Shown here in pieces: positions 6,999 through 51,267 of a DNA stretch of 64,000 bases. Origin of the DNA: an uncultured Gammaproteobacteria bacterium. Its GTDB lineage: Bacteria; Patescibacteriota; Microgenomatia; CAZETR01; Amesbacteraceae. The translations under genes were made by a program, and so were the position numbers. The DNA is taken from positions 5,266-69,265 of the forward strand of contig CAZWKN010000002.1 in assembly GCA_964633995.1 (NCBI GenBank), written 5' to 3'. Under the pieces are notes generated by a model. That model did no database searches, was not told where the DNA came from, and saw only the letters and a list, made by a program, of their open reading frames with translations. Within the stretch, counting starts at the first letter, position 1. The number at the start of each line of letters is the position of its first letter.

Positions 6999-7033
6999 AA
7001 CCCAATGTTAACACTAAGATATATAATTGATCC

Positions 7034-31419: not shown

Positions 31420-32635
31420 AGATGTAAATCACCTCCTTTATAAACCTGATCCTATCATTTTACACCGATATGCAAAGGTGTTGGTAAACTTTGCCCTGAA
31501 TTCCGGCCTGGGGGTAAGGCCCGGCGAGGTGGTAAGACTTGTGGTTTCCGAATCTGCCAAACCCTTACTGGTTGAACTTCGAAACCAAGTATTGCGATCC
31601 GGGGCGATTCCCTTGATTCATTTTCAACCGGACGACATGCAAAAAGAATATTTTGAATTGGCGAGTGAAACCCAACTTAAATTTTTTCCCAAAAAATATC
31701 TAAGGGGCTTGGTTGATCAAATAGACCATTCAATCTCCATAATCTCCGAAACCAATAAGCACGAACTTGAAGGCATTGACCCTGAGAAGATAATGACCAG
31801 ATCGGCGAGTTTTCGGAAGCAACGAGAGTGGCTGGATAAAAAAGAAAACATGGGGAAGTACACCTGGAGTTTGGCTTTGTACGGTACGCCTGCCATGTCC
31901 TCTGAAGCCGGGATGAGCCTATCTGAGTATTGGGACCAAATTACTAAAGCCTGTTTTTTGGACAGAGAAGATCCGATTGAGAGCTGGAGGCAGGTTAGTA
32001 AAGAAACTGAGAGATTAAGAGACAGGCTTGACGAGCTAAAAATAGAAAGGCTGCACGTGGCGGGAAAGGGAGTGGATCTGTGGGTAAAAATAGGTCCGGG
32101 GAGAAAGTGGCTGGGCGGATCTGGGAGAAATATCCCGTCGTTTGAGGTGTTTATTAGCCCTGATTGGAGGGGAACCGAGGGACACATCGAGTTTGACCAG
32201 CCCCTCTACCGATATGGTAATTTAATAAATGGAATTTCTTTGGATTTTGAAAACGGGAGAGTAGTGAAGAGTTCTGCCAAAACGAATTACGAGGTGCTAA
32301 GACAAATGATAAGCCAAAAAAATGCGGATAAAATCGGCGAGTTTTCTTTGACTGATAAAAGATTATCCAGAATTGACCGGTTTATGGCTGAGACCTTGTT
32401 TGACGAAAACATATCGGGGCCGTATGGGAATACCCACATTGCCTTGGGAAATGCCTATAACGATTCGTTTGACGGCGACCCAGCTAAGGTAAGTAAAAGT
32501 GAATGGAAGACGATGGGGTATAACTCCTCGGTGGTTCATACCGATATGGTGTCCACCACTCCAAGAACGGTCACGGCATACTTGGGTAATGGAACAGAAA
32601 AAGTGATCTACAAGGACGGAGAATTTACGATATAA
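31388..32635 (+). CDS. aminopeptidase, M29 (AmpS/PepS) family
   Basis: About 410 aa. N-terminal YAKVLVNFALN...GEVV and C-terminal GNTHIALGNAY resemble thermophilic metalloprotease M29. Start uncertain because the 5' end overlaps the lemA start (divergent). Confidence 0.55.
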   Translation: MATMISGNNHIDVNHLLYKPDPIILHRYAKVLVNFALNSGLGVRPGEVVRLVVSESAKPLLVELRNQVLRSGAIPLIHFQPDDMQKEYFELASETQLKFFPKKYLRGLVDQIDHSISIISETNKHELEGIDPEKIMTRSASFRKQREWLDKKENMGKYTWSLALYGTPAMSSEAGMSLSEYWDQITKACFLDREDPIESWRQVSKETERLRDRLDELKIERLHVAGKGVDLWVKIGPGRKWLGGSGRNIPSFEVFISPDWRGTEGHIEFDQPLYRYGNLINGISLDFENGRVVKSSAKTNYEVLRQMISQKNADKIGEFSLTDKRLSRIDRFMAETLFDENISGPYGNTHIALGNAYNDSFDGDPAKVSKSEWKTMGYNSSVVHTDMVSTTPRTVTAYLGNGTEKVIYKDGEFTI

Positions 32636-34424
32636 GCTTGTGTAAATCTGAAAACGATAGGGTATTTATTACGTCTGATTTGGTACACCAGGCACGCCTG
32701 GCAACGCTGATACCGTAGCGCATGTAAGTAAGCTGGCTTGCCGCATGGCTATCAGTGTCTACTACCAATTTAATTCCGTACTTGATGGCATCGTGAGCAA
32801 CTACGTCCGGTAAATCAAGCCTATTTGGCCAGCCGTCTATTTCCAACCATTTGCCGTTTTTCAGACAAAAATCAAAAATCGTATCCCAGTCCAGATCTAC
32901 TCCCTCTCTTTGATTTAACAATCTGCCGGTGGGGTGGGCTAAAAACTTTACTTTTGGGTGGGATAATGCCCGGACCACCCTTAGGGTGGCCAGTTTTTTT
33001 GATTGCCTGAAACTACTATGAATACTGACACAAGCGTAGTCGAGTAGATCCAAACACGCATCGGGGAGAGCTAATTTGCCATCTGGCTGAATATCTATCT
33101 CCATGCCATTTAATATGTGAAACTTGTCGTGAAAAGATTGAATAAGTTCTGTCCTCTTTTGTACCAGGCTTAATATTTGACCTTGCGTGTGACCCGAAAC
33201 CGATGGATTGTGGTCTGTTAGACCGATGTAGGAGTAACCCTGGTCTTTGGCGGCCTGAATAAGATCTGAGATTGAGCTTTGGCCTAGATCATGGCTAGGC
33301 TCGATATTAAAATCACTATGCACATGTAAGTCCCCCTTTATGTCGCCGGTCTCAATTAGCTGGGGCAGGGTGTGATTTTTGGCAGCTTCTATCTCCCCTT
33401 TGCCTTCACGAAGTTCTGGGGGAATGTAATCCAGACCCAGAAAATTGTAAAACTTTTGCTCGGAGTCAAAAACCTTAACCTCACCCCCAACCCCCTCCAA
33501 TACCACCCCTTTTCGTTCCCCTCCTAAATTAGGAGGGGAATTTAGGATCTTGATACCGTGTTCGGAAAGAGATAAACCTTTTTTTAATGCGTACTCACGA
33601 AGGGCGATGTTGTGATGCTTTGAACCGGTAAAATGCTGAAGAAGTGATCCGTAGGATTCGGGGGGCTGAACCATAAGATCGACCTGGCGATCCCCGGGGA
33701 GAATCAACGAGGCAGACTGCGTGCCAGCTTCCAACACTCTGGATTTGAGGGGGTATTTACAAAAATAATCGATAACCGCTTTGGGATTTTTTGTAGATAC
33801 TGAGAGATCTATGTCCCCCACTGTACTGGCCTGACGGCGTAGTGACCCTAGATAGTCCGCACACAAAACGTCTGAGTTTTTTCTAAGATAAGTAAGCAAT
33901 GAATCGACAATGGCATGGGCTGAATCCAGAAGTAGTCTTTGGGTCCTGCCTGAAAACTCGGTTATGCCCTGCAAAACCCGGGTTTGAGAATCTTCTCCAA
34001 AGCCTTCCAACTTGGCAATCAGGCCTTTTTTGGCTGCTTTTTCCAATTTTGCAATTGCGCCATGTGCGCGGGTGATACCAAAAGCTTTGCAAAACTTGAG
34101 AGCGTTTTTGGGGCCGATACCCGGGACTTCCATGAGCTCAAATAAGGCTTTTGGAAAGGGCTTAAGAATGCTTTCTAAATGCGGGCTTTTACCTGTAGTA
34201 ATAATGTCGTTAAGATGTGCCGCAATGGCTTGCCCAATACCTGCCAAATCTTTGAGTTTGCCGGCATCCCATAAATCTTTGACCTCGGAAGACGAATGCT
34301 CGATGGCGTCGGCTGCCCGATCGTAAGCTATTATACGAAAACGATTGTCCCCTGCCGATAAACTCAAGGCGGCTGAAACAGAACGGAACAATTTGGCAAG
34401 TTCGAGATTAGTAGGATAGGTCAT
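32625..34424 (-). CDS. polX: DNA polymerase/3'-5' exonuclease PolX (family X polymerase with C-terminal PHP domain)
   Basis: Start placed at MTYPTNLELAKLF (ATG 34424). It overlaps the upstream Nudix stop as ATGA. HhH GIGPKNALKF. YIPPELRE. PHP DLHVHSDFN. Confidence 0.8.
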   Translation of the reverse strand: MTYPTNLELAKLFRSVSAALSLSAGDNRFRIIAYDRAADAIEHSSSEVKDLWDAGKLKDLAGIGQAIAAHLNDIITTGKSPHLESILKPFPKALFELMEVPGIGPKNALKFCKAFGITRAHGAIAKLEKAAKKGLIAKLEGFGEDSQTRVLQGITEFSGRTQRLLLDSAHAIVDSLLTYLRKNSDVLCADYLGSLRRQASTVGDIDLSVSTKNPKAVIDYFCKYPLKSRVLEAGTQSASLILPGDRQVDLMVQPPESYGSLLQHFTGSKHHNIALREYALKKGLSLSEHGIKILNSPPNLGGERKGVVLEGVGGEVKVFDSEQKFYNFLGLDYIPPELREGKGEIEAAKNHTLPQLIETGDIKGDLHVHSDFNIEPSHDLGQSSISDLIQAAKDQGYSYIGLTDHNPSVSGHTQGQILSLVQKRTELIQSFHDKFHILNGMEIDIQPDGKLALPDACLDLLDYACVSIHSSFRQSKKLATLRVVRALSHPKVKFLAHPTGRLLNQREGVDLDWDTIFDFCLKNGKWLEIDGWPNRLDLPDVVAHDAIKYGIKLVVDTDSHAASQLTYMRYGISVARRAWCTKSDVINTLSFSDLHKLIS

Positions 34425-34858
34425 TGCATCGCAAAATATGCCTGTTTGATTTCGGCACTGGCTATTGGATACAGCGAACAAAGTGAGTCGAATTCACTCA
34501 TGGGTACCCAGGTAAGTATATACTGATTATCTGCCGAGTTGTTTTTACTCTCTGGGCCATCCCCCAAACAGGGTTCTCCAACTGTGTCACAGATAAAAAA
34601 TGGGTAGATGTCCGTCTTGGCAGTTATTTTGTTGACCATAATTTTGCCGGTGTAGTCGAATGCCTTGGTAAACGAAAGTAGCTTTAGACTAGTTTCTTCT
34701 AATACCTCCCGCCTAAGAGCCGTTTCTATATCCTCCCCATCTTCCACTCCACCACCCGGAACCGTCCAGTATTCTTTACCGTATCTAAACCGGTGAATTA
34801 ATAGAATTTTGCCGTCTCGAAAAATCAGAGCTGATACGCGAACATTTGTCCTGGCCAT
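34421..34858 (-). CDS. Nudix hydrolase
   Basis: Nudix box GGGVEDGEDIETALRREVLEETSL. 145 aa. Confidence 0.75.
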   Translation of the reverse strand: MARTNVRVSALIFRDGKILLIHRFRYGKEYWTVPGGGVEDGEDIETALRREVLEETSLKLLSFTKAFDYTGKIMVNKITAKTDIYPFFICDTVGEPCLGDGPESKNNSADNQYILTWVPMSEFDSLCSLYPIASAEIKQAYFAMQ

Positions 34859-34870
34859 ATGTTAAATATT

Positions 34871-35314
34871 TTAATTTGGTTTGTGCATTTTGGAAATGGC
34901 CCAATTACCGGCCATTGTTAAAACAAATCCCACGGCCACTTTGGCAATCAGATTTTCCCAGGCAAACCTAGCCCCAGTTAGAGCTATCCCATCTACCGGA
35001 TTGAGTCCCAAAATCCAGCCTTTGAGAGTTCCAAAAATAATTGCCGGGGCCATGCGATGTGTTTTTTGATAATAGGCGGTGGCCACCAGATCACAACAAC
35101 CTTCTGTCTCCCGCATGACTTTCACCTGGTACGAGGTGCCTGCCAAGAATGCCAACCCAACGGCTGCCAGTCCAATGACGGGCAACCAGTTTGTTTCGAT
35201 GCCCCGCCCTAACTCGTGAACAGCACTAAATACCACGGCCTGTGCCCCAATCGCAGAGACCGCTTTGGCAACCTCCGCTCCGGCTGAAAGTTTGAGTACA
35301 TCTGGCTTGATCAT
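34871..35314 (-). CDS. small integral membrane protein
   Basis: 147 aa, four hydrophobic helices. Confidence 0.4.
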   Translation of the reverse strand: MIKPDVLKLSAGAEVAKAVSAIGAQAVVFSAVHELGRGIETNWLPVIGLAAVGLAFLAGTSYQVKVMRETEGCCDLVATAYYQKTHRMAPAIIFGTLKGWILGLNPVDGIALTGARFAWENLIAKVAVGFVLTMAGNWAISKMHKPN

Positions 35315-35347
35315 GTAGTGGGCGAATTATATTACTGATGCCAAGTA

Positions 35348-35629
35348 TTGTGGTGCTATAATCCGGACATGGCCTGGATAAAAGAATTGTTTAACAAGCC
35401 GGTCGGATCAGAGGCTCAAATAAATGCAGCGCAAAGCACAAAAAATGCTTTAGTCACCGGGGAAGCGATGTTGACAATGGCTGCTTTGGTAAGCTTGGGA
35501 CTCGTGGACCGAGAGCTGATAATACCGGTTATCCACTTATATTTAGCTCAACTGCTTTTGGTAAGTAGTTTTGTTTTTGGATACGTTGAACCCAGGTTAG
35601 ATGAACTAAAACAAAAAAGAAAAAAATAA
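35348..35629 (+). CDS. hypothetical small membrane protein
   Basis: 93 aa, two hydrophobic segments. Confidence 0.3.
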   Translation: MWCYNPDMAWIKELFNKPVGSEAQINAAQSTKNALVTGEAMLTMAALVSLGLVDRELIIPVIHLYLAQLLLVSSFVFGYVEPRLDELKQKRKK

Positions 35630-35633
35630 GTAT

Positions 35634-35882
35634 ATGATTGAAACAAATTATAGATCCAGAGCAACAAATGAAGTTAAAAATATAGCGCTGGGTGGTATTA
35701 ACTTAGTAGTAACCCTGACCGCAAGCCTCGGGAGGAGTGAAAAAATTGACTTTGATCTGGCGCATTTGATTGGAATGGCCAAACAGTTGGGTGCTACTGG
35801 GACAGAATTACGGCTGGCTTTGGGTTTGCCTGATCTGAAAGAACGAAAAAAGTTTTACCATACTGGAAAAGGCTCAATCTAG
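35634..35882 (+). CDS. hypothetical protein
   Basis: 82 aa. 4-nt spacing from the upstream ORF. Confidence 0.3.
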   Translation: MIETNYRSRATNEVKNIALGGINLVVTLTASLGRSEKIDFDLAHLIGMAKQLGATGTELRLALGLPDLKERKKFYHTGKGSI

Positions 35883-36008
35883 CTCTTTGGGATAAGCTGT
35901 GGATCGAATCCCATCCATCGAGGGCTTGCTCAAGCCGGAATAAAAGCTTAATCCCAACATTCGCGACACCAGATTAAAATGGCTTGAACTGAATTATGCT
36001 AGAGAATT

Positions 36009-36557
36009 TTATAGAAGATTGATTAGTTGGGTTTGGAACATTTCAAAAATTGCTTTATTTTTTGTTCTTCCATTGGGGTTTATTGGCGAAGGGTGAAAAA
36101 TTGCCAATATTGAGTATTTTTTACTCCCAACAAAAACTTGGTCCAATTTTCCAATTTGCAAATTTAACCCAGAAATCAGATTAAATATTCTTAGCGTCTC
36201 CACTCCCAAAATAATCAGTAATTTGTAGTCAGTAGAGGCTAGCTGATTCAAAAAGATCGGCCAACATTTTTGACTGCACGACAATAATTGGTGCCTGTTT
36301 TTACCGACAAAACATTTGGAAAGCTCCGTAAAACCACAAACTTCGACTGACAGCCCTAAACCCGAAAGTAATTCATTGAGCCGTTTGCCGGTTGGCAATA
36401 GCTTTCCTTCCGGGGCATAACACGCCTTGCCGGATTTCCTCCAACCGTTGGGAGCAGGTGACTCGCCTACCAACAAAACATATTTACCCTTGCCAACTCC
36501 TCTTTGATGAAACTTATTAATTGGAAACTCGTTCGGGGATTCACAATAGTGTTCCAT
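36009..36557 (-). CDS. uracil-DNA glycosylase superfamily protein (family 4/5-like)
   Basis: VLLVGESPAPNGW (GExPG-type motif A) and C-terminal IFHPSPINPNG (HPSP motif B). 182 aa. Confidence 0.55.
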   Translation of the reverse strand: MEHYCESPNEFPINKFHQRGVGKGKYVLLVGESPAPNGWRKSGKACYAPEGKLLPTGKRLNELLSGLGLSVEVCGFTELSKCFVGKNRHQLLSCSQKCWPIFLNQLASTDYKLLIILGVETLRIFNLISGLNLQIGKLDQVFVGSKKYSILAIFHPSPINPNGRTKNKAIFEMFQTQLINLL

Positions 36558-36653
36558 TTCCGAATTATATGCCCTTGCCGTGTGGGCTTAGTATAGCGAA
36601 AAAAGCTTGCCTTGTTTCCAGACGGCAGTATCATTGGTTTATAATTAGCTGTA

Positions 36654-37277
36654 ATGATACCGTTAAAGGAAAAGATTAACCCCAAAGATACAGCATTGGT
36701 TGTTATTGATGTTCAAAACGACTTTGCCTCACCGGATAAGAGATTTTTTCGGGCAAGTAGAAATGGCGATTTGTCTCTGGTTGACCCCATGATAGACAAG
36801 ATGGAGAAAGTAATCCCTGAGGCTGAAAAAGCCGGAGTGTTGGTAATCTATACTCAGCAGATTTATGACCGAAGTAAGCTAAATGATTTACAAAAAGAAC
36901 AATATGATTTGGATGGAAAATTAGTCACTTGCGATTTTTCATCTAATGGATATAGGTTTTACCGGCTTAATCCTCCTCAAGATATGGTTTTTCCCAAATA
37001 CAACTTCAATATTTTCTCAAATAAAGAATTGGTCGGCTTGCTAGAAGCCAGAAGGATAAAAACGCTAGTTATTAGCGGAATGGACACGATTTTCTGTGTC
37101 GAGACAGCGATAAGAAACGGCTATGATTTAGGTTACAAAATTGTGGTTCCTGCAGACATGGTTGCGGGGAATGCTAAAGCAAAGGAAATGAACGACAGGA
37201 CACTAGATTTAGTGAAAAAAACCTATGGAGTACTCACTACTTCTGATGAGTTAATTAAACTTTGGAAAGTGGCATAA
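36654..37277 (+). CDS. isochorismatase family cysteine hydrolase (nicotinamidase-like)
   Basis: ALVVIDVQNDF and VISGMDTIFCVETAIRNG (catalytic Cys). 207 aa. Confidence 0.7.
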   Translation: MIPLKEKINPKDTALVVIDVQNDFASPDKRFFRASRNGDLSLVDPMIDKMEKVIPEAEKAGVLVIYTQQIYDRSKLNDLQKEQYDLDGKLVTCDFSSNGYRFYRLNPPQDMVFPKYNFNIFSNKELVGLLEARRIKTLVISGMDTIFCVETAIRNGYDLGYKIVVPADMVAGNAKAKEMNDRTLDLVKKTYGVLTTSDELIKLWKVA

Positions 37278-37387
37278 CCTTTATTCCATATAACCGGACT
37301 GAAACTCTTTTAGCTTCAATGCGGGCAGCCTGAACGAAATTCGGAGCTGGTGGTTAATTAACTCATCCGAACAACTAAGGCTAAAGG

Positions 37388-38047
37388 CTATTTTAAACTT
37401 AACTCCTTCTGATTCAGGTGCGGCCTTGCCGCGTAAATAAGAGAAATCAGCCAGCCAAACGTAATCACCATGATTATTTTTTGAAAGACGCCCAAGTATT
37501 GGTAAAAATCACCTTTTATAAACCAATACGTCCAAAGATAACAAAGAATTGAACTTATATATCCCGATATTGCAGTAAATTTGGCTAAGTGAGCAAATTT
37601 AGGTTCACCTTTTAATGCTTTTTGCAGGTGGTATATTCCCAAGGGAGCTAGCAGGAAGAAAGCTGCTAAAGCTGACAAGTGGACTACTCCCATAACCGTA
37701 AGATGAGTGTGGGTAATTGGGATTTGGCCAACTAAGTCAGTTGGAAAAATGATTACAACCGCTACGAATGCGATGCAAAAAAGCACAATTCTATTCCAAA
37801 CATTCTGTGCATATTTGCTTGCCAGTTTGTGATTAACCATAAATCCAGCAATCACCAGACCAATGCCTATTTGCATAAAATTTAGTTGTTGGATGATGCC
37901 ATATTTCATGATTGCTAAAATGCTTATTGTATCTCGTAGGTGATCATATCCAGGCGTTATTAACCCCAACACAAGCACAATTACAAAAAAAACAATGGGG
38001 CTTAAAATCGCGTAACACCAACTGATTATCGATATTTTTCTGTTCAT
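37388..38047 (-). CDS. integral membrane protein
   Basis: 219 aa, six hydrophobic helices. Confidence 0.4.
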   Translation of the reverse strand: MNRKISIISWCYAILSPIVFFVIVLVLGLITPGYDHLRDTISILAIMKYGIIQQLNFMQIGIGLVIAGFMVNHKLASKYAQNVWNRIVLFCIAFVAVVIIFPTDLVGQIPITHTHLTVMGVVHLSALAAFFLLAPLGIYHLQKALKGEPKFAHLAKFTAISGYISSILCYLWTYWFIKGDFYQYLGVFQKIIMVITFGWLISLIYAARPHLNQKELSLK

Positions 38048-38121
38048 GGGATGATTATATCTCCAAAGTAGTCAATTGCAGTCGACTATACAGGGCAAAT
38101 ATTCGGGGAGATAATACCGTC

Positions 38122-38835
38122 ATGGATGAACTTCACCCGATTCAAATGAAGATTTTGACCAAACTGCTGTTTAATCCTTCACTTCGCTATTCGGAAATGA
38201 AGCCAGATAAAGAAATGGAAAACAACACATTTCAGTTCCACTTAGACCAACTAACCAAATTAGGTTTAGTTGAAAAGGCGGATAACGCCTATATTCTCAC
38301 AAAAGACGGCAAGAAATTTGCCTTACGGATTAAGGCTGAAAATTCAAAGTTGGTCGTCCAGGCAAAGATTGGAGTATCCATGGGATGTGTCAGGAAGAGC
38401 GAAGGTAAAGCCCAAGTACTCATCTATACCCGCCTCAAACACGCTTATTACGGTTGCCAGGGCTTTCCAGCTGGAAAGATAGAACAAGGAGAAGCTTTCC
38501 TTGATGCTGCCAGGAGAGAGTTGCAAGAGGAAACTGGCTTGATTGGTAATCCAAAACTGGCTGGAATCATTCATTACCGTATTTTTAACCAGGAAGGGAC
38601 AGAGCTACTTGACGACCTACTTCCCTTTTTATGCCGTTTTGATGACCCCACGGGGGAATTAGTCAGTAGCCGTGAAGGAAAGTACGAATGGATTGATATA
38701 GAATCTGTCAGTGATTTCATTACTAAACCTTTCCAAAGCAAAGAATGGTTTATGGAAGAGGTTAAAACTATTACAGACTTCAAAAAGATGCCAACTTTTG
38801 TTGAAAAGACATATCACGACTTCAAGAACTTCTAA
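38122..38835 (+). CDS. winged-helix DNA-binding domain fused to Nudix hydrolase domain
   Basis: N-terminal HTH (IQMKILTKLLFNPSLRYSEM...LTKLGLVEK), then Nudix box GKIEQGEAFLDAARRELQEETGL. 237 aa. Confidence 0.65.
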   Translation: MDELHPIQMKILTKLLFNPSLRYSEMKPDKEMENNTFQFHLDQLTKLGLVEKADNAYILTKDGKKFALRIKAENSKLVVQAKIGVSMGCVRKSEGKAQVLIYTRLKHAYYGCQGFPAGKIEQGEAFLDAARRELQEETGLIGNPKLAGIIHYRIFNQEGTELLDDLLPFLCRFDDPTGELVSSREGKYEWIDIESVSDFITKPFQSKEWFMEEVKTITDFKKMPTFVEKTYHDFKNF

Positions 38836-38970
38836 ACGGATATCCTTGGTTGCTTGGGTTATGGATGACACGTATTCTATTAATCCCTATAGCGAAAATG
38901 GAACCCTTGGTAAAGGAGATTACGGCGATTTACTATATCTTGGGTAAACTTAACTTACTTCGAGATAATT

Positions 38971-39075
38971 TTATTCAAGCCAGTTTGTAATCTTTGAAAA
39001 ATCTCTTTGTTCCTTACTCTTCCGGTGGGATTTATGGGCGAAGGATGAAATATTGCCAGTACATAATCCATAGAT
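38971..39075 (-). pseudogene. decayed remnant of a UDG-superfamily gene 3' end (paralogue of 36009..36557)
   Basis: About 80% nt identity over the last ~50 nt to the 3' end of the UDG gene (cttccggtgggatttatgggcgaaggatgaaatattgcc vs cttccattggggtttattggcgaagggtgaaaaattgcc). Translation IS.FAHKSHRKSKEQ ~ IFHPSPINPNGRTKNK. Truncated by the adjacent hydrolase gene. Confidence 0.45.
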
Positions 39076-39630
39076 CTACCCAAACATCTTCTTCAAACTG
39101 TCCAAAACTTCTTTAAATGTGAAATAGCCGCTGGCGCTATTGAAGTGGCCGCCGCCCGAGACAATGGTAAGTTCGCCATTTAATTCTTTGGAAAGAATTT
39201 GGGCATTTTCAATTGGCACATATGGGTCGTTGTCGCTGTGAATTATTGCGAAATGGTCTGCCATTGATTTGATCTTGGGAAAATTGAACGGTTTTTCCAG
39301 AAAAGAGTCAATGCTCCTATTGTCATTTTTCATACACGGCCCGGAAACAAGAACCGCACCTGATATGTGTTTTGCATCTGATGATTCTAGATATCTCAAA
39401 ATCGCGGTTGCCCCCAAACTATGACCCACTAAATACACATCGGCGTCTGGATCCATGACCACCTGGTGAGCTATCTCGTCAACCCACGCCCCGGGAACAG
39501 GGCTATTTGGACTGGGCAATGCAATTGAGGCCGCATATATATCTAATTTCTCAAGTTCGGACAAAATCCACGGCTTCCAATTACCGTTTGGGGTGCCACA
39601 AAAGCCGTGAAGTAACAGTACTTTTTTCAT
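39076..39630 (-). CDS. alpha/beta serine hydrolase, YdeN/RBBP9 family
   Basis: MKKVLLLHGFCGTPNGNW and nucleophile elbow VGHSLGA. 184 aa. Confidence 0.6.
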   Translation of the reverse strand: MKKVLLLHGFCGTPNGNWKPWILSELEKLDIYAASIALPSPNSPVPGAWVDEIAHQVVMDPDADVYLVGHSLGATAILRYLESSDAKHISGAVLVSGPCMKNDNRSIDSFLEKPFNFPKIKSMADHFAIIHSDNDPYVPIENAQILSKELNGELTIVSGGGHFNSASGYFTFKEVLDSLKKMFG

Positions 39631-40775
39631 TTATCTTTAAACCCGTTTTGAAAGTAATCCATAATTATTTGTCTTTTTTTTTCTGGAGTGTCTGACCCAG
39701 CTATTTTAGTTTGCAAGTCAACTATATCCAAATTTGGATCACGATCAAAATAATGATATCCGCTGGTTGCGTATTTGGCAAAGGCCACCGCCCTTATGTG
39801 GTGAGTACTTTCTCCTGCCATAGATTTAAATACCATTGCAATAACTTCATCTCTGGCGTTTCTTGTTGCGTCTTTTAGGTACGCGTGTCCAGCTTGTGGA
39901 TCATCGCCAATGGCATTTACGACCGCATTCATCAATCTGTGGTTAATTTGAACAAGCTCATCATTTGTGATTTCTTTTTCTGTTTTATCAGCGACAGAGT
40001 CGTATTTGACCGTAAGGGGTTCATCAGTAAAAAATTGTGTCCTAAGTGTTTCAACTCGTTTTAATAATTCTTCATCAGGTAAATGAGTAGGAAAATTTCG
40101 ATCGTTAACAAAATGGGTCCTTTCGTGGACTTCGATATTGATCGCTCCAGCCGCAATTGACCCCCCCTCGCCTTCCATTGTGGTTATTGCGAACTGAGAA
40201 CCAGCTAGTGCCAAACCATAAATTGACCTATATATTTTTTGCCTCTGTAATTTGTCAACAACGCCGGCTTCGACCAGCTCTTGTACTTGACTAAAGCCCA
40301 AAAATGATAAGTTTTTAAAGTCTTGGGATCCAAACTGCACCGCCATTGGATCGCTAGCCAAATCCATGGCAATTTCTAATAATTGGGGTCTAATATTTAC
40401 AGGCAATTTTTCGCCTACGCACAATTCTTCCAAAGTTGTTCTGACAGTGGCCCTACATGCCAAAGCGTCAGGATTGGAACGTGCCATGTACTTCATTTCG
40501 TTTTCAACATGACCCACATCCAAAGTAATTGTGATATTTTTTGTCGCTGGGTCAAAACCATTGTTTGGCTCATCCTTATCCCAGCCATATTTATAGAAAA
40601 CTTGTGCTAATCCTGCTTCCGGATAAATCTCTGTTAGAAGTCTCATCCCGTTCGAATTTCTCGCATCGAATCTAATCCTACTTTCGACTAACGCGTCTGG
40701 GTTTGAAAGGAGCTTTGTTTCAGTTGGTAAGGGTGTATTGATCTCAAAATCGGATGCGGACGGTCCTGAATACAT
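39627..40775 (-). CDS. hypothetical protein with HExxH motif (possible zincin-like metallopeptidase)
   Basis: 382 aa. GAINIEVHERTHFV contains HExxH. 4-nt overlap with the downstream hydrolase gene. No further family assignment possible by eye. Confidence 0.4.
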   Translation of the reverse strand: MYSGPSASDFEINTPLPTETKLLSNPDALVESRIRFDARNSNGMRLLTEIYPEAGLAQVFYKYGWDKDEPNNGFDPATKNITITLDVGHVENEMKYMARSNPDALACRATVRTTLEELCVGEKLPVNIRPQLLEIAMDLASDPMAVQFGSQDFKNLSFLGFSQVQELVEAGVVDKLQRQKIYRSIYGLALAGSQFAITTMEGEGGSIAAGAINIEVHERTHFVNDRNFPTHLPDEELLKRVETLRTQFFTDEPLTVKYDSVADKTEKEITNDELVQINHRLMNAVVNAIGDDPQAGHAYLKDATRNARDEVIAMVFKSMAGESTHHIRAVAFAKYATSGYHYFDRDPNLDIVDLQTKIAGSDTPEKKRQIIMDYFQNGFKDK

Positions 40776-40804
40776 CTTAATATTTCGATAGACAACAAGT
40801 GTGC

Positions 40805-40881
40805 TGGCGGGACCGACGGGGCTCGGACCCGCGACCTCGGCCTTGACAGGGCCGCGCTCTAACCAACTGAGCTACGATCCC
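40805..40881 (-). tRNA. tRNA-Asp (GTC)
   Basis: Reverse complement GGGATCGTAGCTCAGTTGGTTAGAGCGCGGCCCTGTCAAGGCCGAGGTCGCGGGTCCGAGCCCCGTCGGTCCCGCCA folds as a cloverleaf. Anticodon loop CTGTCAA. CCA encoded. T-loop TCCGAGC. Confidence 0.8.
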
Positions 40882-40909
40882 AGCTTACATGTAGTATTTT
40901 ACATTACTC

Positions 40910-40938
40910 TTGCAATTTTGGCTGGGAGGATTTATATT
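40910..40938 (+). promoter_or_regulatory. candidate sigma70-like promoter for the LysM gene
   Basis: TTGCAA-17 nt-TATATT, 37 nt upstream of the TTG start at 40975, which has a GGAAG Shine-Dalgarno. Confidence 0.3.
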
Positions 40939-40974
40939 CGCACTTAACTCAAACCTGCCCGGAAGTGGAAGAAA

Positions 40975-41445
40975 TTGAAGATAAATCAAAAATTATTAAT
41001 GAATTTGGCAGGTGTCGCAATCGTAGTCGGTACGGTGTGGGGATTGTTTTCGTATCTAGTGTCTGTAAATTCTGTCGGCAAAATAGCATCCGGGGTGAAT
41101 ACAGAACTTGAAAACGTAGGAAAATTTGAGTACGTCGTGGCTAAGGGCGACACTTTGTGGGCAATCGCTGAAAAAAACCTGGGAACAGGGTATGGATGGG
41201 TGGAAATTGCCAACACTAACAAATCAGTGATAAGTAATCCCGACGTGCTTGAGGCTGGGATGAAAATTACAATACCGGCTCCAAAAATAACCGACCATAC
41301 CGTAGTTTTGGGTGATAACTTGTGGGATTTGGGGGTCAGATATTGCAATAACGGCTTTGCCTGGACAAACATTGCCACATTCAACAACTTGGAGAATCCG
41401 AGAGTAATAGAGATCGGACAATTGCTTAAGATTAAGTGCATTTAG
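40975..41445 (+). CDS. LysM domain-containing protein (two LysM repeats, N-terminal membrane anchor)
   Basis: YVVAKGDTLWAIAEKNLG and HTVVLGDNLWDLGVRY are LysM cores. 156 aa. Confidence 0.7.
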   Translation: MKINQKLLMNLAGVAIVVGTVWGLFSYLVSVNSVGKIASGVNTELENVGKFEYVVAKGDTLWAIAEKNLGTGYGWVEIANTNKSVISNPDVLEAGMKITIPAPKITDHTVVLGDNLWDLGVRYCNNGFAWTNIATFNNLENPRVIEIGQLLKIKCI

Positions 41446-41484
41446 GTGAGGTTGTTGTAAAATGATAATTGCGCTACGCGCTGC

Positions 41485-41512
41485 GGGATATTGAACTTTT
41501 GGTTCATATCCC
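41485..41512 (+). terminator. candidate intrinsic terminator hairpin
   Basis: GGGATATTGAAC-TTTTG-GTTCATATCCC (11-bp stem, one bulge) followed by a T-rich stretch, 40 nt after the LysM stop. Confidence 0.35.
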
Positions 41513-41573
41513 TTAGATTGCTTAGTTGCTCAATGCTCAAGCTAAAGCTTTCCGCTTTCGCAAGTCACAATCT

Positions 41574-41647
41574 GCGGGATTAGTTCACCGGTAGAATGCG
41601 TCCTTCCCAAGGATGAGAAGGGGGTCCGATTCCCCTATCCCGCTCCA
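41574..41647 (+). tRNA. tRNA-Gly (CCC)
   Basis: GCGGGATTAGTTCACCGGTAGAATGCGTCCTTCCCAAGGATGAGAAGGGGGTCCGATTCCCCTATCCCGCTCCA. Perfect 7-bp acceptor. Anticodon loop TTCCCAA. CCA encoded. T-loop TCCGATT. Confidence 0.65.
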
Positions 41648-41691
41648 AAAGTAACAGAAATGTACATAAAGTTACTAGAAACTTACATAAA

Positions 41692-42165
41692 ATGACAATA
41701 ATACACAATCACGAACCCAAAAATTACGATTGTCCTTTTTGTAGATTAGTTCACGGTCAAGATGATGAGATTAATAAACAAGAATATATTGTTTATCAAG
41801 ATAGCAAAACTGTTGCATATGTAGCACCTAAATGGTGGGATAAGAATCCGGGACATGTTTTAGTTGTTCCGAAAGAGCATATTGAAAATATTTACAATAT
41901 CCCGGACGAATTATTGGCCGACGTTTATAAAACAGTAAAAAAGGTCGCCATTGCAATCAAAGAAACATATAAATCTGATGGCACTTCAACTCGTCAGCAC
42001 AATGAACCTGCAGGTAATCAAGACGTTTGGCATTTCCATGTCCACGTTTTTCCAAGATATGAAAATGATGAATTATATAAGAATCATGATAATAAAAGAT
42101 GGGTTAATCACGAAGAAAGGTTAGAATTTGTCAACAAGCTCAAAAAATACTTTGCAAATAAATAG
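41692..42165 (+). CDS. HIT family protein (histidine triad nucleotide hydrolase/transferase)
   Basis: Histidine triad WHFHVHVFPR. Zinc-ribbon-like CPFC near the N-terminus. 157 aa. Confidence 0.75.
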   Translation: MTIIHNHEPKNYDCPFCRLVHGQDDEINKQEYIVYQDSKTVAYVAPKWWDKNPGHVLVVPKEHIENIYNIPDELLADVYKTVKKVAIAIKETYKSDGTSTRQHNEPAGNQDVWHFHVHVFPRYENDELYKNHDNKRWVNHEERLEFVNKLKKYFANK

Positions 42166-42282
42166 CTAAACTCTACTTCTGTGCTGCTTACCAAATACTT
42201 CCAGAAACAAAAATGGGTTGATTTTCTCCAGGTAGCCCTTAAGAACTGTAAGTTGTAAAATTAATTCAGGAGAAATAAGACG

Positions 42283-42705
42283 GTGCAGGTTCGAGCTGAG
42301 TACCGTCTCCAGCTCCATAAGGGACTTACACAAATGACAAAAACAGTCAAAACAATAAAGGAAGCACAAAAGTTGGTAAGAGATTTTGCTAAACGCAACA
42401 ATTGGAAAGATTTACCAAATGTTGATAAATTTGATCATCTTCATGAAGAATTAATAGAAATGTCCCAGTATCTTAGGTATAAAACGGAAGAGGAAAGAAC
42501 AATGTGTGTTAAAGAAAATAAAGAAGCGTTTAAAGATGGTATCGGTGACTTATTTTTTGGAACTTGCCGTTTGGCTAACCAATTAGGTGTTGATATTGAA
42601 GACGCTTTTAATATGGTTCAAAAAGAAATTCTGGCAAAATATAATCATAAAAACCCTGAAAATAACATCGTCAAACTCGAGTTGGTCCATAAGCAACCTG
42701 GCTGA
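42283..42705 (+). CDS. MazG-like nucleoside triphosphate pyrophosphohydrolase domain protein
   Basis: HLHEELIEMSQ...KDGIGDLFFGTCRLANQLGVDIEDAF (EExxE / D motif). GTG start at 42283 with an AGGAGA SD 9 nt upstream. An alternative ATG is at 42334. Confidence 0.55.
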   Translation: MQVRAEYRLQLHKGLTQMTKTVKTIKEAQKLVRDFAKRNNWKDLPNVDKFDHLHEELIEMSQYLRYKTEEERTMCVKENKEAFKDGIGDLFFGTCRLANQLGVDIEDAFNMVQKEILAKYNHKNPENNIVKLELVHKQPG

Positions 42706-43800
42706 TTCACCATAATTGGCGGCTAGTTCTGTAGATATATCTTTTACTAGTACTTCGGGCTTGTTTAAAAAGTTATCTGGTTCTTTACCCCGATTGAATA
42801 AATCAATGATGCCGGCGTGTAATATCTCCAGTTCCTGTTCTTTTGATTCCTTTTGGGGAACGCTATTTAGCGACTCGCGACGAAATAAATCCTGAGCATA
42901 TTTGGAACTATGATGATAAATAACTGCGTCATTTTGTTTGGCCTGTAATAAAATTAAGGCTAGAGAATCGGAATCCTCATGACTTTGGTCGACCATGTGT
43001 TCGAGAATGCTCCCGTTATTATGAGCTAGCGTGTGAGAAGCGTTTATTAAACTTAAACTTGAATCCGCGGTGAATTGCGTGGTAAATCGGTTGGTTCTGA
43101 AATTTGCCAAAAGGGATACCCCGCCCTGCCAACCATCTACCTTGCCTATTTGATCATTGGCTACACTACCAACGTCTTGAACCACTAGTGAGATTGCCTG
43201 GCTTAGAGCTTCTTCATCCCGACCCAGAGATTTTAAATATTTTCCATATAGATCTGCCAGCGCGTCTTTGTGATACCCATACCTAGTGCCAATAGCGTGA
43301 ATTTTATAAGTTAGATGCTCGCGGATGATGGCCTGGGCTAGCGCGTCATAATATTGCTGGCCCATAAAAGAAAGGTATTTAGTCACTTCCGGATCACAAT
43401 CAGGCCTCCTGACTAACGGCTCGAGCAAGGCGACGTCATATGGATCGGACGGCTTTACCGATCCGCACTCGTTTTTTAATGCATAGGCAGCCGCACAAAC
43501 CTCCTTATCGTTATTAAACTTTGGCTTCGAATCCCAAGTTTTGTCCGTGAAAACTTGACCAGATAGGTGAAGACCGAACATGTCCGGAACTTCGCCCCTG
43601 ACAACCGCCGAGGCAAAACCGTCAAATCCCCCCCGGGAGCAAAGCAGGCCTATGGCAGCTTTTTGCTCTGGCCTACGACTGACCTCAGTGTGGATTTCTC
43701 CATCTCCGACTGGCATGTGAAAAATTATACACCGCGAAAATAGTTTATAATTAAACCATGACGAAATATAAACAAGCGGTCGCAGACATGCTGGCTGCAC
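42583..43800 (-). CDS. hypothetical protein
   Basis: 405-aa ORF. A likelier start is the ATG at 43716 (MPVGDGEIH...). The 3' end overlaps the MazG-like gene by ~120 nt (convergent), so one of the two ends may be miscalled. Confidence 0.4.
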   Translation of the reverse strand: MQPACLRPLVYISSWFNYKLFSRCIIFHMPVGDGEIHTEVSRRPEQKAAIGLLCSRGGFDGFASAVVRGEVPDMFGLHLSGQVFTDKTWDSKPKFNNDKEVCAAAYALKNECGSVKPSDPYDVALLEPLVRRPDCDPEVTKYLSFMGQQYYDALAQAIIREHLTYKIHAIGTRYGYHKDALADLYGKYLKSLGRDEEALSQAISLVVQDVGSVANDQIGKVDGWQGGVSLLANFRTNRFTTQFTADSSLSLINASHTLAHNNGSILEHMVDQSHEDSDSLALILLQAKQNDAVIYHHSSKYAQDLFRRESLNSVPQKESKEQELEILHAGIIDLFNRGKEPDNFLNKPEVLVKDISTELAANYGESARLLMDQLEFDDVIFRVFMIIFCQNFFLNHIKSVFNINT

Positions 43801-44027
43801 ACAAAAACGAGTTTGATGAATTTAAAAAATACGGCGTAGAAGACCCGGAGTTTAATGAGTTGGGCAAACCGTTGCTTCGGATAATTTCCGAAACCGAAAA
43901 TAGATTGTGCGGAAAGATGGAGGGAGCTGGGAAGGGGTCGTATTCTGCCAATCTAGCTGAAAAATTCCGCCAGGAGTTACGAATTCACATCCCCTTGGTG
44001 GACATGATTGGCGTGGTGTTTAAATAA
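43758..44027 (+). CDS. hypothetical protein
   Basis: 89-aa ORF filling the gap between convergent genes. Confidence 0.3.
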   Translation: MTKYKQAVADMLAAHKNEFDEFKKYGVEDPEFNELGKPLLRIISETENRLCGKMEGAGKGSYSANLAEKFRQELRIHIPLVDMIGVVFK

Positions 44028-44847
44028 CGTACACGTCCTGGCCGAAATCGTTGACGCCCACAAATTTGCCCTTGCCGGAGGCGGCAGCTTCTAGAGGCAA
44101 ACAGTCGCGACATCCTGAGATTTTTGGGCATTGGAAATGATTTAATTTACGGGCTAAAGCAACTTTTTTGGCGACAGATAATACCCGGGCAAGCGCTTCC
44201 TGAGTATCGGGCAAATTCACCGGAGTGGGGGCATTGTCGCGACCCAGGTACCAATAGGAAACGCCCTCGACGGTTCTGCTTTGACACTTGGAAGCCAAGA
44301 GAAGATAAATCGGGAGTTGAAGGGAATCGGGATCTTCGTCGTATTTGCCGGTTTTGAAATCTAAAATTCTCACCCCGTCGGTAGCTTCGTCGTACTCTAA
44401 CCAATCGATCTTGCCACAGAGAATAATATTATCTTCCTCGGATAGCCAAAAATACGGAAGTTCCTGGCGGATTTTGACTGTCTTCCTTAAAATAGGACCA
44501 GGGTGATCTGTAACTCGTTGGAGCATATCCAGGCCCTTTAAATGAGTTTCTGCTTCTTGGGACGAGTCTTTGAAGCCACCTTTTTGACCTTCTACCTTGG
44601 CCCATGCCTGGTTAAATTTTTCTGCCAGAGGGACGGAAAACCGTTCTGAGACTGGAAGAATAGAAAGTGATTCGATAACTTCGTGAACCGATTGGCCCAG
44701 GGCTAGTGCAGGTGACATGATACTTATTTTATGATGGGTCTTGGGGTCTTTGTAGACATTTTTTAGATAATAAGCCCGAGGGCACTTGAGATAATCCCCC
44801 ATGGAGGAGTGCGAGACCCAAACAGCTGAAAATTTATCCCTGGTCAT
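44020..44847 (-). CDS. PD-(D/E)XK nuclease superfamily protein (Cas4/RecB-like with Cys cluster)
   Basis: N-terminal Cys (DYLKCPRAYYLK). DFKTGK and QLPIY motifs of RecB-family nucleases. C-terminal Cys pair CPKISGCRDC. 275 aa. Confidence 0.55.
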   Translation of the reverse strand: MTRDKFSAVWVSHSSMGDYLKCPRAYYLKNVYKDPKTHHKISIMSPALALGQSVHEVIESLSILPVSERFSVPLAEKFNQAWAKVEGQKGGFKDSSQEAETHLKGLDMLQRVTDHPGPILRKTVKIRQELPYFWLSEEDNIILCGKIDWLEYDEATDGVRILDFKTGKYDEDPDSLQLPIYLLLASKCQSRTVEGVSYWYLGRDNAPTPVNLPDTQEALARVLSVAKKVALARKLNHFQCPKISGCRDCLPLEAAASGKGKFVGVNDFGQDVYVI

Positions 44848-45406
44848 GAATTAATTGCGCTAGTTTTAACTCTATTTCATCTAATTGAGCTACTAAACGT
44901 CCTTTGAGTTTAGATTTAATAATTGATATTCTTTTGGAATCGGCATCCAAATATTGTTGTGGGTTGGCTTTGAATGGTGCCCAGGTTGAAATACCTTTTG
45001 TTTCAAGACTAATTAATAAAGTCAGCCTATTGGCCAATAAATCGGCTGCTGAAATGGCCAACACTTCTCTGGATTGCTTTTTTAGGTGGTCGCGGTAATC
45101 TTGTTTGCGTTTTTCCCAGTTGTCGGTCTTATTTTTTTCAGTAACACCAGAAACAAGATTGGCAATTCGCTTACCAAATTTGCTTTCGATATCCAAGAGA
45201 GTCGTTGGGGTGTCCTCGACCAAGTCATGAAAAAGCCCGGCTATAACCACGTCTTCGCTAAAACCACAATCCGCCAAGATATGGGCAACAATGTACGGGT
45301 GTGAAACATAGGGTACATTTTTGGGGACCTTACGATATTGACCTCGATGGGTGACTGCTGTAAATTCTACAGCTAAAAGAAATTTTTTTGAAAGCGCTTG
45401 TTTCAT
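44834..45406 (-). CDS. HD domain protein, RelA/SpoT-type (p)ppGpp hydrolase-like (small alarmone hydrolase candidate)
   Basis: YVSHPYIVAHILA...GLFHDLVEDT matches the SpoT-type HD hydrolase core. 190 aa. 14-nt overlap with the downstream nuclease gene. Confidence 0.6.
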   Translation of the reverse strand: MKQALSKKFLLAVEFTAVTHRGQYRKVPKNVPYVSHPYIVAHILADCGFSEDVVIAGLFHDLVEDTPTTLLDIESKFGKRIANLVSGVTEKNKTDNWEKRKQDYRDHLKKQSREVLAISAADLLANRLTLLISLETKGISTWAPFKANPQQYLDADSKRISIIKSKLKGRLVAQLDEIELKLAQLIHDQG

Positions 45407-45481
45407 TGGAGCCGGGGGGGAGATTCGGACTCCCGACCCGCGGTTTACGATACCGCTGCTCTACCCCTGAGCTACCCCGGC
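45407..45481 (-). tRNA. tRNA-Thr (CGT)
   Basis: Reverse complement GCCGGGGTAGCTCAGGGGTAGAGCAGCGGTATCGTAAACCGCGGGTCGGGAGTCCGAATCTCCCCCCCGGCTCCA. Anticodon loop ATCGTAA. CCA encoded. T-loop TCCGAAT. Confidence 0.8.
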
Positions 45482-50359: not shown

Positions 50360-51267
50360 TTTAAAGTGGAAAACAAACCGACAGCAGATCCAAATAATAC
50401 CGACAAATCCGCCGTTATTTGTAATATCGGAAGCCAGATAATTGCTCGGATATCTTTGACGTAACGATAATTTTTTCGAATCGAAAGTAGTAGATAGCAA
50501 ATCGCAAGTAGGATAATAAATGGTTTTAGAATAGTTAACTCAAATGATAAAAAGAAAAGATAGACAAACACTAAATAACGCATGGCTAGGCGCTTAACCT
50601 GAGGTCGAATTATTTTGGCTTGAATGTCACCAATAGCAAATCGCATAAACATCCAGGCTGCTTGAATTAATGTTTTACGCGGAATCCAGGAAACAACGGC
50701 GAGTGGGGCGAAAGTAAATGAATAGCCTAATGATTTTAGTCGATGGGCATAAGCATAATCTTCATTGTGATATAACGTCGGATCGAAACCCCCTGACTTG
50801 TCCCAGACTACACGCCTTAGAGCCATGGATCTAGTGGATGGATAAAACTCTGATTTGTTGGCAACATCGGGCATAACTAAGACGTATGGAATTAGACATT
50901 TTTGGAAAATGTTTTTTGATTCGCCGCGATAATAACCACTAACAACTGAAACCGCGGAGTCGGCAAAGGGTTTCAATAACTCTTCTAACCAATTTAAATC
51001 TGGCACACACCCTGCGTCTGTAAAGGCAATTAATGGGTATTTCGATTTTGATACACCAAAATTTCGCCCTACTGATCTGTTTCCTGGATTTTGAAAGTAC
51101 CTAACACCTTTTGTTTTTTGAAGCAGTTTCCAGGTGGAGTCCGTAGATCCACCGTCGACGATAATTATTTCGGTAGCAGAAGATGTCTGGTTGGTCAGCG
51201 CTTTAATGAGGGGGAGTAGCGTGTCTTCTTCGTTAAAAACCGTCACTATTACCGATACTTTTGCCAT
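50356..51267 (-). CDS. glycosyltransferase family 2
   Basis: VSVIVTVFNEEDTL...IIIVDGGSTDST. 303 aa with C-terminal TM helices. Confidence 0.75.
   Translation of the reverse strand: MAKVSVIVTVFNEEDTLLPLIKALTNQTSSATEIIIVDGGSTDSTWKLLQKTKGVRYFQNPGNRSVGRNFGVSKSKYPLIAFTDAGCVPDLNWLEELLKPFADSAVSVVSGYYRGESKNIFQKCLIPYVLVMPDVANKSEFYPSTRSMALRRVVWDKSGGFDPTLYHNEDYAYAHRLKSLGYSFTFAPLAVVSWIPRKTLIQAAWMFMRFAIGDIQAKIIRPQVKRLAMRYLVFVYLFFLSFELTILKPFIILLAICYLLLSIRKNYRYVKDIRAIIWLPILQITADLSVLFGSAVGLFSTLK

Follow-up and report, generated by a model that had tools for sequence, protein, structure and literature searches.

A tRNA-studded block of house-cleaning and accessory genes in a CPR bacterium: a conserved scaffold with two variable slots and a probable integrase-less hotspot of gene turnover

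The stretch of DNA analysed here, hereafter called the window, is 64 kb of chromosomal DNA of a candidate phyla radiation (CPR) bacterium belonging to the Microgenomates group. Next to the gene for the polymerase PolX, positions 34421 to 45481 hold a block of small genes and three tRNA genes that is probably an integrase-less chromosomal gene-turnover hotspot with independent house-cleaning and accessory enzymes, a reading to which we assign a probability of roughly 0.65. The block consists of a conserved scaffold that carries two variable slots. Most of it is accessory rather than core, as an earlier sequence-only reading of this DNA had proposed, in that both flanks are kept in relatives while the slot content differs; the same reading had taken it for one island, and that view gives way to a conserved scaffold interrupted at two places.

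Related loci were gathered with PolX as an anchor (genome contigs) and with the PD-(D/E)XK nuclease as an anchor (80 metagenome loci, plus one more) and were all compared by tblastn and ARAGORN; the 85 related loci are numbered L006 to L090. The relatives L006, L007, L009, L015 and L016 show 63–72% protein identity to the window, and exact-protein matches occur only in contigs of one sample and the same population (L008 and L091). These five relatives share a framework in which the flanks, the tRNAs, the LysM gene and PolX stand in the same order. Written with PolX on the plus strand, the framework runs from unk357-GT2-Wzy-BigGluco(-) through tRNA-Thr(+), [PD-(D/E)XK], LysM(-) and tRNA-Gly(-) to tRNA-Asp, [Nudix] and PolX-LemA-M48-GatA-GatB. 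Both core flanks, from unk357 to BigGluco and from PolX to GatB, are syntenic in all five, and so is LysM, at 38–47% identity; tRNA-Thr lies beside BigGluco in each of them, and tRNA-Asp keeps its relative place in these five and in L040. PolX is 63–65% identical and occupies the same position in L006, L007, L009 and L015, and the nuclease is part of the framework in L009, L015 and L016. The 4-nt overlap of Nudix with PolX is also found in L009, where the Nudix homologue is 40% identical; in L007 a Nudix gene lies near PolX without adjoining it, and none is present at this site in L006 and L015. Judged by these comparisons, the scaffold of the block comprises the three tRNAs, LysM, the nuclease and the Nudix–PolX pair, and the remaining genes are specific to this genome.

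Slot 1, from tRNA-Thr to tRNA-Gly, is 3.8 kb long in the window and contains HD_4, the nuclease, a near-ORFan, MazG and HIT genes. The same interval is 60 bp in L006, 2 bp in L007 and 8 kb in L009, where it holds the nuclease, S26/CAP, Crp, GrpB, PDF and an AAA_15/21 ATPase. Slot 2, from tRNA-Asp to PolX, is 6.4 kb long in the window, with a 382-aa HExxH protein, a Ser_hydrolase, a fragment of a uracil-DNA glycosylase (UDG) gene, a fusion of a winged helix-turn-helix (wHTH) to Nudix, DUF998, an isochorismatase, UDG, two small open reading frames (ORFs), a membrane protein and Nudix. This slot is 0.35 kb in L006, where Ham1/ITPase adjoins tRNA-Asp, and 4.8 kb in L007, with DUF2268, a DEAD helicase, two Nudix genes, Bro-N and an unknown gene; in L009 it is filled by one Nudix gene. 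The order is slightly different in L015 and L016, whose variable stretches carry a YgjP-like peptidase gene after the nuclease and SNase, alpha/beta hydrolase, GNAT, HD/DUF4202, APH and HAD genes. The slots span 2 bp to 8 kb with unrelated genes, and each related genome examined has its own slot content. The relatives fall into two groups with opposite orders of tRNA-Gly and LysM, a further indication of local rearrangement. Synteny had been named as the check that would tell an island from core genome, and its answer is divided: the order of the scaffold is kept in relatives, and the order of the cargo is not.

The hallmarks of a classical island are missing from the block. No integrase or recombinase was matched by Pfam in the listed ORFs of the block, and the only transposase-like gene in the window, an IS200-like Y1 transposase (23637–24311, +) between the DnaE region and gatB, lies 10 kb outside it. 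Searches by blastn-short with all four tRNAs revealed no 3'-end duplicate and no partial copy longer than 12–13 nt outside the tRNA genes, and a repeat search over 30–50 kb found flanking direct repeats at chance level only. Thus the att-like direct repeats for which a check at the block edges had been proposed were not found. The GC content of the block is 0.38–0.46 against a range of 0.37–0.46 in the window, and codon-use z-scores are typical except for the low GC content at third codon positions (GC3) of HIT and MazG; by both measures, which had been put forward as indicators of an island, the block is native-like and typical of the window. The proposed tRNA boundary holds for the right edge, which is tRNA-Thr, and fails at the left one, which is formed by the Nudix–PolX pair and has no tRNA.

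The genes of the block do not make up an operon-like unit, because the strand changes eight times among its 19 features. Three gene overlaps that had been described hold: the ATGA between Nudix and PolX, 4 nt between the 382-aa protein and Ser_hydrolase, and 14 nt between HD_4 and the nuclease. Only these three pairs look co-expressed, and Nudix–PolX is the only one of them that recurs in a relative. Catalytic motifs are intact in the translations (both Nudix boxes, the HxHxHxx triad, EExxE, HD and GESP/HPSP). All the house-cleaning enzymes score below the NCBIfam equivalog cut-offs, and their functions are domain-inferred. An Rfam scan of the block returned the three tRNAs and nothing else, and a promoter/terminator scan gave a result no better than shuffled sequence.

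In a hotspot of this kind, small self-contained genes would be gained, lost and rearranged at the slots. The likely route would be recombination with the highly conserved tRNAs and flanking core sequences as anchors, or the action of mobile elements that were later lost, and the UDG fragment and a truncated ORFan would be scars of such turnover. It has been shown that many hotspots of horizontal gene transfer (HGT) exist without integrases or mobile elements, with turnover by recombination at flanking core genes; integrases are missing from most hotspots, and mobile elements of any kind from about half (PMC5635113). Consistently, Patescibacteria contain many genomic islands and transferred genes (PMC12455944). 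Each cargo gene would work on its own, transcribed separately from its neighbours on alternating strands: the MutT-like Nudix, HIT and MazG-like enzymes may clean or recycle non-canonical nucleotides, UDG may remove uracil, HD_4 may degrade (p)ppGpp-type alarmones, and the Fe-S PD-(D/E)XK nuclease may process DNA ends. CPR bacteria and Patescibacteria are generally unable to make nucleotides (PMC12455944; PMC7304191), and damaged nucleotides can enter the pool by way of salvage (PMC12887539). House-cleaning enzymes plausibly dominate the cargo because CPR bacteria, without de novo nucleotide synthesis, depend on salvage and may thereby take up nucleotides with damaged or modified bases.

Clustering of nucleotide-directed enzymes in the block is beyond chance. 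Small hidden Markov models built from the window's own Nudix, HIT, MazG, HD_4 and UDG proteins were used as a background search. These five families account for six genes in the 11-kb block and for none in the window's remaining 53 kb (Pfam scan of about 38 genes; Fisher p ~3e-4), and they gave five matches in 746 kb, that is, in 74 CPR loci of unrelated context. The Poisson tail stays below 1e-4 with a several-fold higher assumed background and a correction for about 90 windows per genome. All queries were drawn from this window, which makes the background rate an underestimate. The enrichment in nucleotide-directed hydrolases claimed previously is real as clustering, and it does not extend to the isochorismatase and the Ser_hydrolase, which are not nucleotide-directed.

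Several observations weigh against a hotspot of gene turnover. Nucleotide-directed hydrolases are far denser here than in the background, and such enzymes recur in the slots of relatives (two Nudix genes in L007, Ham1 in L006, HD in L016, SNase in L015 and Nudix in L009), neither of which is predicted by a purely neutral hotspot. This recurrence together with the high density leaves room for selection on co-location with PolX. The low GC3 of HIT and MazG is the only compositional hint of foreign origin. Because the relatives are distant, gain here is inseparable from loss or relocation there; the comparison stands at the genus or family level. Furthermore, single-gene differences also occur in the flanks, where the M29 peptidase, beta-CASP and MFS genes are absent from L006.

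A selected genome-integrity neighbourhood, in which sanitising and base excision repair (BER) enzymes are kept near PolX because their co-location or co-regulation benefits a salvage-dependent cell, would account for the clustering just described, for the ATGA coupling of Nudix to PolX conserved in L009 and the Nudix genes near PolX in L007, and for the recurrence of differing house-cleaning families in this region of every relative, including HD/DUF4202 in L016. However, no pair or order other than Nudix–PolX is conserved, the genes lie on alternating strands, half of the cargo is unrelated to nucleotides (isochorismatase, Ser_hydrolase, DUF998, membrane and ORFan proteins), the slots of relatives also contain GNAT, APH, Crp, PDF and glycosyltransferase genes, and the background behind the contrast of six genes in 11 kb with five in 746 kb is underestimated. 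We regard such a neighbourhood as unlikely, yet as a real rival to the hotspot. Still less probable is an origin from one or more integrative elements that inserted at the 3' end of tRNA-Thr, tRNA-Gly or tRNA-Asp and later lost integrase and att sites, leaving the slots behind. The 3' ends of tRNA-Thr and tRNA-Gly face each other and delimit slot 1 exactly, the two tRNAs are 2–60 bp apart in L006 and L007, the GC3 of HIT and MazG is deviant, rearrangement scars are present, and the slots of relatives include Bro-N (L007) and an AAA_15/21 ATPase (L009). Set against this are the absence of an integrase or recombinase from the block, with the IS200-like gene 10 kb away, the lack of flanking direct repeats and of any tRNA 3'-end duplicate of 13 nt or more, a native-like codon use, and cargo without relatives in phage records or IMG/VR contigs.

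Of all the readings, defence has the weakest support. On this view the block encodes an uncharacterised system for anti-phage defence or nucleotide signalling, in which, for instance, an alarmone hydrolase and a nuclease would work with HIT, MazG and Nudix effectors. When 19 block proteins were scanned against PADLOC-DB v2, only single-domain matches were obtained (HIT with ThsC, E 3.6e-17; Nudix with PDC-S07; wHTH with Csa3; and Cas4 models); these matches, the 14-nt overlap of HD_4 with the nuclease and the presence of two proteins of unknown function speak for a defence role. However, the PADLOC scan found no complete system in the block, Pfam found no TIR or SIR2 among the genes scanned from 19 to 63 kb, no cas genes (Pfam), cas1 and cas2 included, and no CRISPR array are present in the 64-kb window, and no small alarmone synthetase (SAS) accompanies HD_4. 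The nuclease is a conserved Patescibacteria gene in core contexts, among the 85 related loci HD_4 adjoins it in this genome alone, the gene neighbourhoods of the 382-aa protein's homologues are unrelated, and the genes alternate in strand. The lack of co-occurrence of these genes in other genomes has already largely been observed. The defence function suggested previously is hence very improbable. The same low odds apply to a bolder version, in which slot 1 is a CPR-specific nucleotide- or alarmone-based immunity or antitoxin module and the 382-aa HExxH/Ser_hydrolase pair is a second one. Such a slot 1 module would run from tRNA-Thr to the alarmone hydrolase and the Fe-S nuclease, followed by the near-ORFan, MazG and HIT; if it were real, the tRNA-flanked position of the slot modules would mirror the defence hotspots of better-studied bacteria.

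As a probable gene-turnover hotspot, the locus is a new example of an already documented phenomenon. Like the integrase-less HGT hotspots described by Oliveira, Touchon and Rocha in 2017 (PMC5635113), it has accessory genes between core flanks, cargo that differs from genome to genome, tRNA genes at the site and no recognisable mobile element or integrase. However, that concept was defined within species or clades of cultured bacteria, whereas the comparison here concerns genus- or family-level CPR relatives at 63–72% identity. The block resembles tRNA-associated islands and integrative elements in its location at tRNA 3' ends and its presence or absence relative to relatives, but it differs from them in having no integrase, att repeats or compositional shift and in being split by the nuclease, LysM and tRNAs. 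Its intact motifs and the Nudix–PolX coupling are shared with the route formed by house-cleaning hydrolases (MutT/Nudix, MazG, HIT, Ham1/ITPase) and PolX/UDG BER; in contrast, its scores are sub-equivalog, its UDG is highly divergent, and its clustering is lineage-specific rather than a conserved operon. With defence islands, Thoeris, CRISPR-Cas4 and toxSAS–small alarmone hydrolase (SAH) pairs it has in common the HIT, Nudix, Cas4-like PD-(D/E)XK and SpoT-type HD families, but the partners (TIR/SIR2; Cas1/Cas2 and an array; an alarmone synthetase toxin) are absent from the block and no linkage is conserved. A concentration of defence-flavoured domains (Nudix, HIT, MazG, HD and Cas4-like) in a CPR genome need not mean a defence island. 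The locus offers a clean, well-delimited integrase-less hotspot in an ultra-small bacterium and a useful anchor for pangenome studies of house-cleaning gain and loss in streamlined, salvage-dependent genomes, and it draws attention to two very rare protein families, the invariant-HExxH protein and the near-ORFan.

The features of the block are listed in Table 1. All the genes named in the sequence-only reading were confirmed by Pfam and ORF calls, the three tRNA genes are real, and the decayed gene duplicate is the 3'-end fragment of UDG. PolX is a conserved scaffold gene and the left anchor of the block.

Table 1. Genes and tRNAs of the block and its left anchor, with positions in the window
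Feature	Position	Strand	Evidence and place
PolX (pol-beta-like polymerase + PHP)	32625..34424	-	Pfam DNA_pol_B_thumb, HHH_8, PHP; ATG at 34424
Nudix hydrolase, MutT-like	34421..34858	-	Pfam NUDIX E 1.3e-18; semi-conserved scaffold
147-aa hydrophobic protein	34871..35314	-	slot-2 cargo; gene call in Logan contig L091
Two small ORFs (93/86 aa, 82 aa)	35348..35882	+	slot-2 cargo; gene calls in L091
Divergent UDG-superfamily glycosylase	36009..36557	-	Pfam UDG E 1.8e-11; slot-2 cargo
Isochorismatase-family amidohydrolase	36654..37277	+	Pfam E 2.5e-30; slot-2 cargo
DUF998 membrane protein	37388..38047	-	Pfam DUF998 E 1.5e-18; slot-2 cargo
wHTH-Nudix fusion	38122..38835	+	Pfam NUDIX E 2.8e-13; slot-2 cargo
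Decayed UDG 3'-end fragment	38958..39092	-	match to UDG gene
YdeN-type serine hydrolase	39076..39630	-	Pfam Ser_hydrolase E 3.3e-26; slot-2 cargo
382-aa HExxH protein	39627..40775	-	putative metallohydrolase, rare family; slot-2 cargo
tRNA-Asp(GTC)	40805..40881	-	ARAGORN + Rfam; scaffold, slot-2 edge
LysM-domain protein	40975..41445	+	Pfam LysM E 1e-20; scaffold
tRNA-Gly(CCC)	41574..41647	+	ARAGORN + Rfam; scaffold, slot-1 edge
HIT-family nucleotide hydrolase	41692..42165	+	Pfam HIT E 4.5e-18, HxHxHxx present; slot-1 cargo
MazG-like NTP pyrophosphohydrolase, weak call	42283..42705	+	slot-1 cargo
377-aa near-ORFan (also given as 377/405-aa)	42583..43716	-	slot-1 cargo
PD-(D/E)XK nuclease, Cas4/AddB-type 4-Cys cluster	44020..44847	-	Pfam PDDEXK_1 E 8.8e-21; scaffold
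HD_4 SpoT-type small alarmone hydrolase (predicted)	44834..45406	-	Pfam HD_4 E 1.6e-18; slot-1 cargo
tRNA-Thr(CGT)	45407..45481	-	ARAGORN + Rfam; scaffold, right block edge

The TGA of the MutT-like Nudix gene overlaps the ATG of PolX as ATGA. The 147-aa protein has no Pfam or PADLOC match and is missing from all related loci, and the two small ORFs likewise match nothing in Pfam or PADLOC. The UDG-like protein reaches 39 bits against the family-4 model TIGR00758 (cut-off 125), has no relative in the PDB and is missing from related loci. Its decayed fragment matches UDG residues 153–188 with 58% amino acid identity over 36 aa (E 3e-11), and the DNA is about 69% identical to the UDG gene. The isochorismatase falls below every NCBIfam equivalog cut-off, with 75 bits for RutB and 29 bits for PncA. 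In the wHTH-Nudix fusion, the N-terminal winged helix is weak (HTH_45, 21.6 bits; DUF7347, 24.4 bits; both under the gathering scores), whereas the Nudix box G-x5-E-x7-REUxEExGU is complete and the best PDB matches are MutT and MTH1. The position of this fusion beside the isochorismatase raised the idea of an NrtR-like regulator, which was rejected because the two domains stand in the opposite order, the Nudix part matches MutT and MTH1, and the isochorismatase is not a PncA equivalog. The HIT gene is absent from the same site in relatives. The MazG-like call is weak, at 19.9 bits in Pfam against a cut-off of 27, with 5ie9 as the best PDB match (E 5e-4).

The PD-(D/E)XK nuclease has more than 6000 homologues, of which the best 120 (the genome's own copy excluded) are about 61–71% identical and spread across Patescibacteria. 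It lies directly after tRNA-Thr in L009 and L015; in more distant genomes it is found within the same glycosyltransferase/Wzy cluster (L034–L036, L040 and L042) or beside rml genes (L039). Its motifs D147, D162-x-K164, QxxxY, C22 and C240-x5-C246-x2-C249 make up the PD-(D/E)XK and 4-Cys Fe-S set. These features are common to AddB/RecB-type nucleases and hence are not diagnostic of Cas4. Against the CRISPR Cas4 model TIGR00372 the protein scores 27.9 bits, below the cut-off of 65. What had been listed as a Cas4-like nuclease in a defence context is a gene conserved widely in Patescibacteria; it keeps its position in L009, L015 and L016 and is not CRISPR-associated. In L015 and L016, the nuclease gene forms a conserved pair with a gene for a YgjP-like HExxH metallopeptidase (10797–11345 and 10803–11357, respectively) that overlaps its 3' end; the window has the ORFan in that position. 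In L039, a more distant CPR genome, a HIT and a Nudix gene (6716–7680) share a 4-nt overlap; they belong to a co-directional run that includes rmlB/rmlD-like genes, and the PD-(D/E)XK homologue follows 2.3 kb downstream.

HD_4, a protein of 190 aa, is predicted to be a stand-alone SpoT-type small alarmone hydrolase: it carries HDLVED as the HDxxED motif, has no synthetase domain, and finds its best PDB matches in the small alarmone hydrolases Lmo0812 and 7qoc/7qoe and in Mesh1. Its gene sits between tRNA-Thr and the nuclease, with no RelA_SpoT synthetase beside it, and has no PADLOC match. The only adjacency of HD_4 and nuclease among L006–L090 is in L008, which comes from the same genome or population; a homologue with 30% identity lies downstream of the nuclease in L048. 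The ATG of HD_4 directly follows the CCA end of tRNA-Thr with a spacer of 0 nt (window 45400–45481), and in relatives the ATG of the nuclease follows the same tRNA by 4–6 nt (L009, 9923–10003; L015, 9921–10003). Spacers of 0–6 nt leave no room for a leader or a Shine-Dalgarno sequence outside the tRNA. This arrangement hints at a tRNA–mRNA co-transcript that may be processed into a leaderless mRNA.

Among 5.8e9 proteins the 382-aa protein has four homologues, whose gene contexts are unrelated and in no case include an adjacent Ser_hydrolase. Its HExxH motif (H217-E218-x-x-H221), noted in the sequence-only reading, proved to be invariant in five of the five known family members. No relatives of the protein were found in Pfam, the PDB, or phage and viral records; neither it nor MazG has a match in 50,697 phage records, where HIT has only generic matches of 31–38%. 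In two NCBI metagenome-assembled genomes (MAGs), L001 and L002 (9703–10804), the homologue is split into an 86-aa ORF (residues 3–94) and a 267-aa ORF (residues 103–379), which suggests a frameshifted copy. For the near-ORFan, a word-indexed search of 5.8e9 proteins returned only the protein itself, and an exhaustive phmmer search of 1.84e9 cluster representatives found three homologues of 450–473 aa with 28–32% identity; there is no relative in Pfam or the PDB. The protein is about 80–100 aa shorter than these homologues, with homology lost near residue 350, and the 3' end of its gene overlaps the convergent MazG gene by 123 nt (42583–42705). GC3 is 0.27 in HIT, the lowest in the window, and 0.30 in MazG, against a mean of 0.41 (sd 0.05). 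These data suggest that the near-ORFan was truncated at its C terminus when the low-GC3 HIT–MazG segment arrived.

Scans of IMG/VR contigs with alignments of both rare families gave no match, and PDB profile searches with both gave none with E below 0.2. AlphaFold models of the 382-aa protein (from a 5-sequence alignment) and the ORFan had a confidence (pLDDT) of 46, with less than 35 in the HExxH region, and of 38, respectively; both models were too poor for a fold search. Several candidate relationships were rejected: the 382-aa and 405-aa proteins are not paralogues (BLASTP E >1), and profile comparisons gave probabilities below 1% for the 382-aa family with the DUF2268 (L007) and YgjP-like (L015) metallopeptidases and for the ORFan family with the YgjP-like one.

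The host assignment is consistent with the genes of the window. Its PolX is 65% identical to that of two Candidatus Amesbacteria MAGs, and the best named homologues of the nuclease belong to Gottesmanbacteria and other Patescibacteria. Housekeeping neighbours include DnaE, GatA/GatB, an HtpX-type M48 peptidase, LemA, an M29 aminopeptidase and a polysaccharide cluster, together with ParB, FtsW, IleRS and FtsZ. In SRR8893623, the Logan contigs from this population break off within tRNA-Thr, tRNA-Gly and tRNA-Asp; slot 1 stands alone on a 3.9-kb contig (L008/L092, window 41601–45463), and L091 ends at window position 40856. These breaks could reflect tRNA sequences common to co-occurring genomes or strain-level variation of the slots. 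In relatives, the Bro-N domain protein lies at 8471–9301 of L007 in slot 2, and the AAA_15/AAA_21 (AbiEii/OLD-like) ATPase at 16424–17809 of L009 in slot 1. Bro-N and AAA_15/21 ATPase genes are typical mobile or defence cargo.

Elsewhere in the window, a GT4-family glycosyltransferase gene (51249–52170, -) is divided into two overlapping ORFs, with Glyco_transf_4 at the N-terminal and Glycos_transf_1 at the C-terminal side, and is likely a frameshift or a pseudogene. Three large ORFs of 680–716 aa without a Pfam match lie at 8067–10217 (+), 13004–15046 (-) and 15043–17133 (-). An 857-aa fusion of Kelch repeats to an LCAT/PGAP1-like lipase is encoded at 52970–55543 (+), and its counterpart occupies the same position in L009 (1–705).

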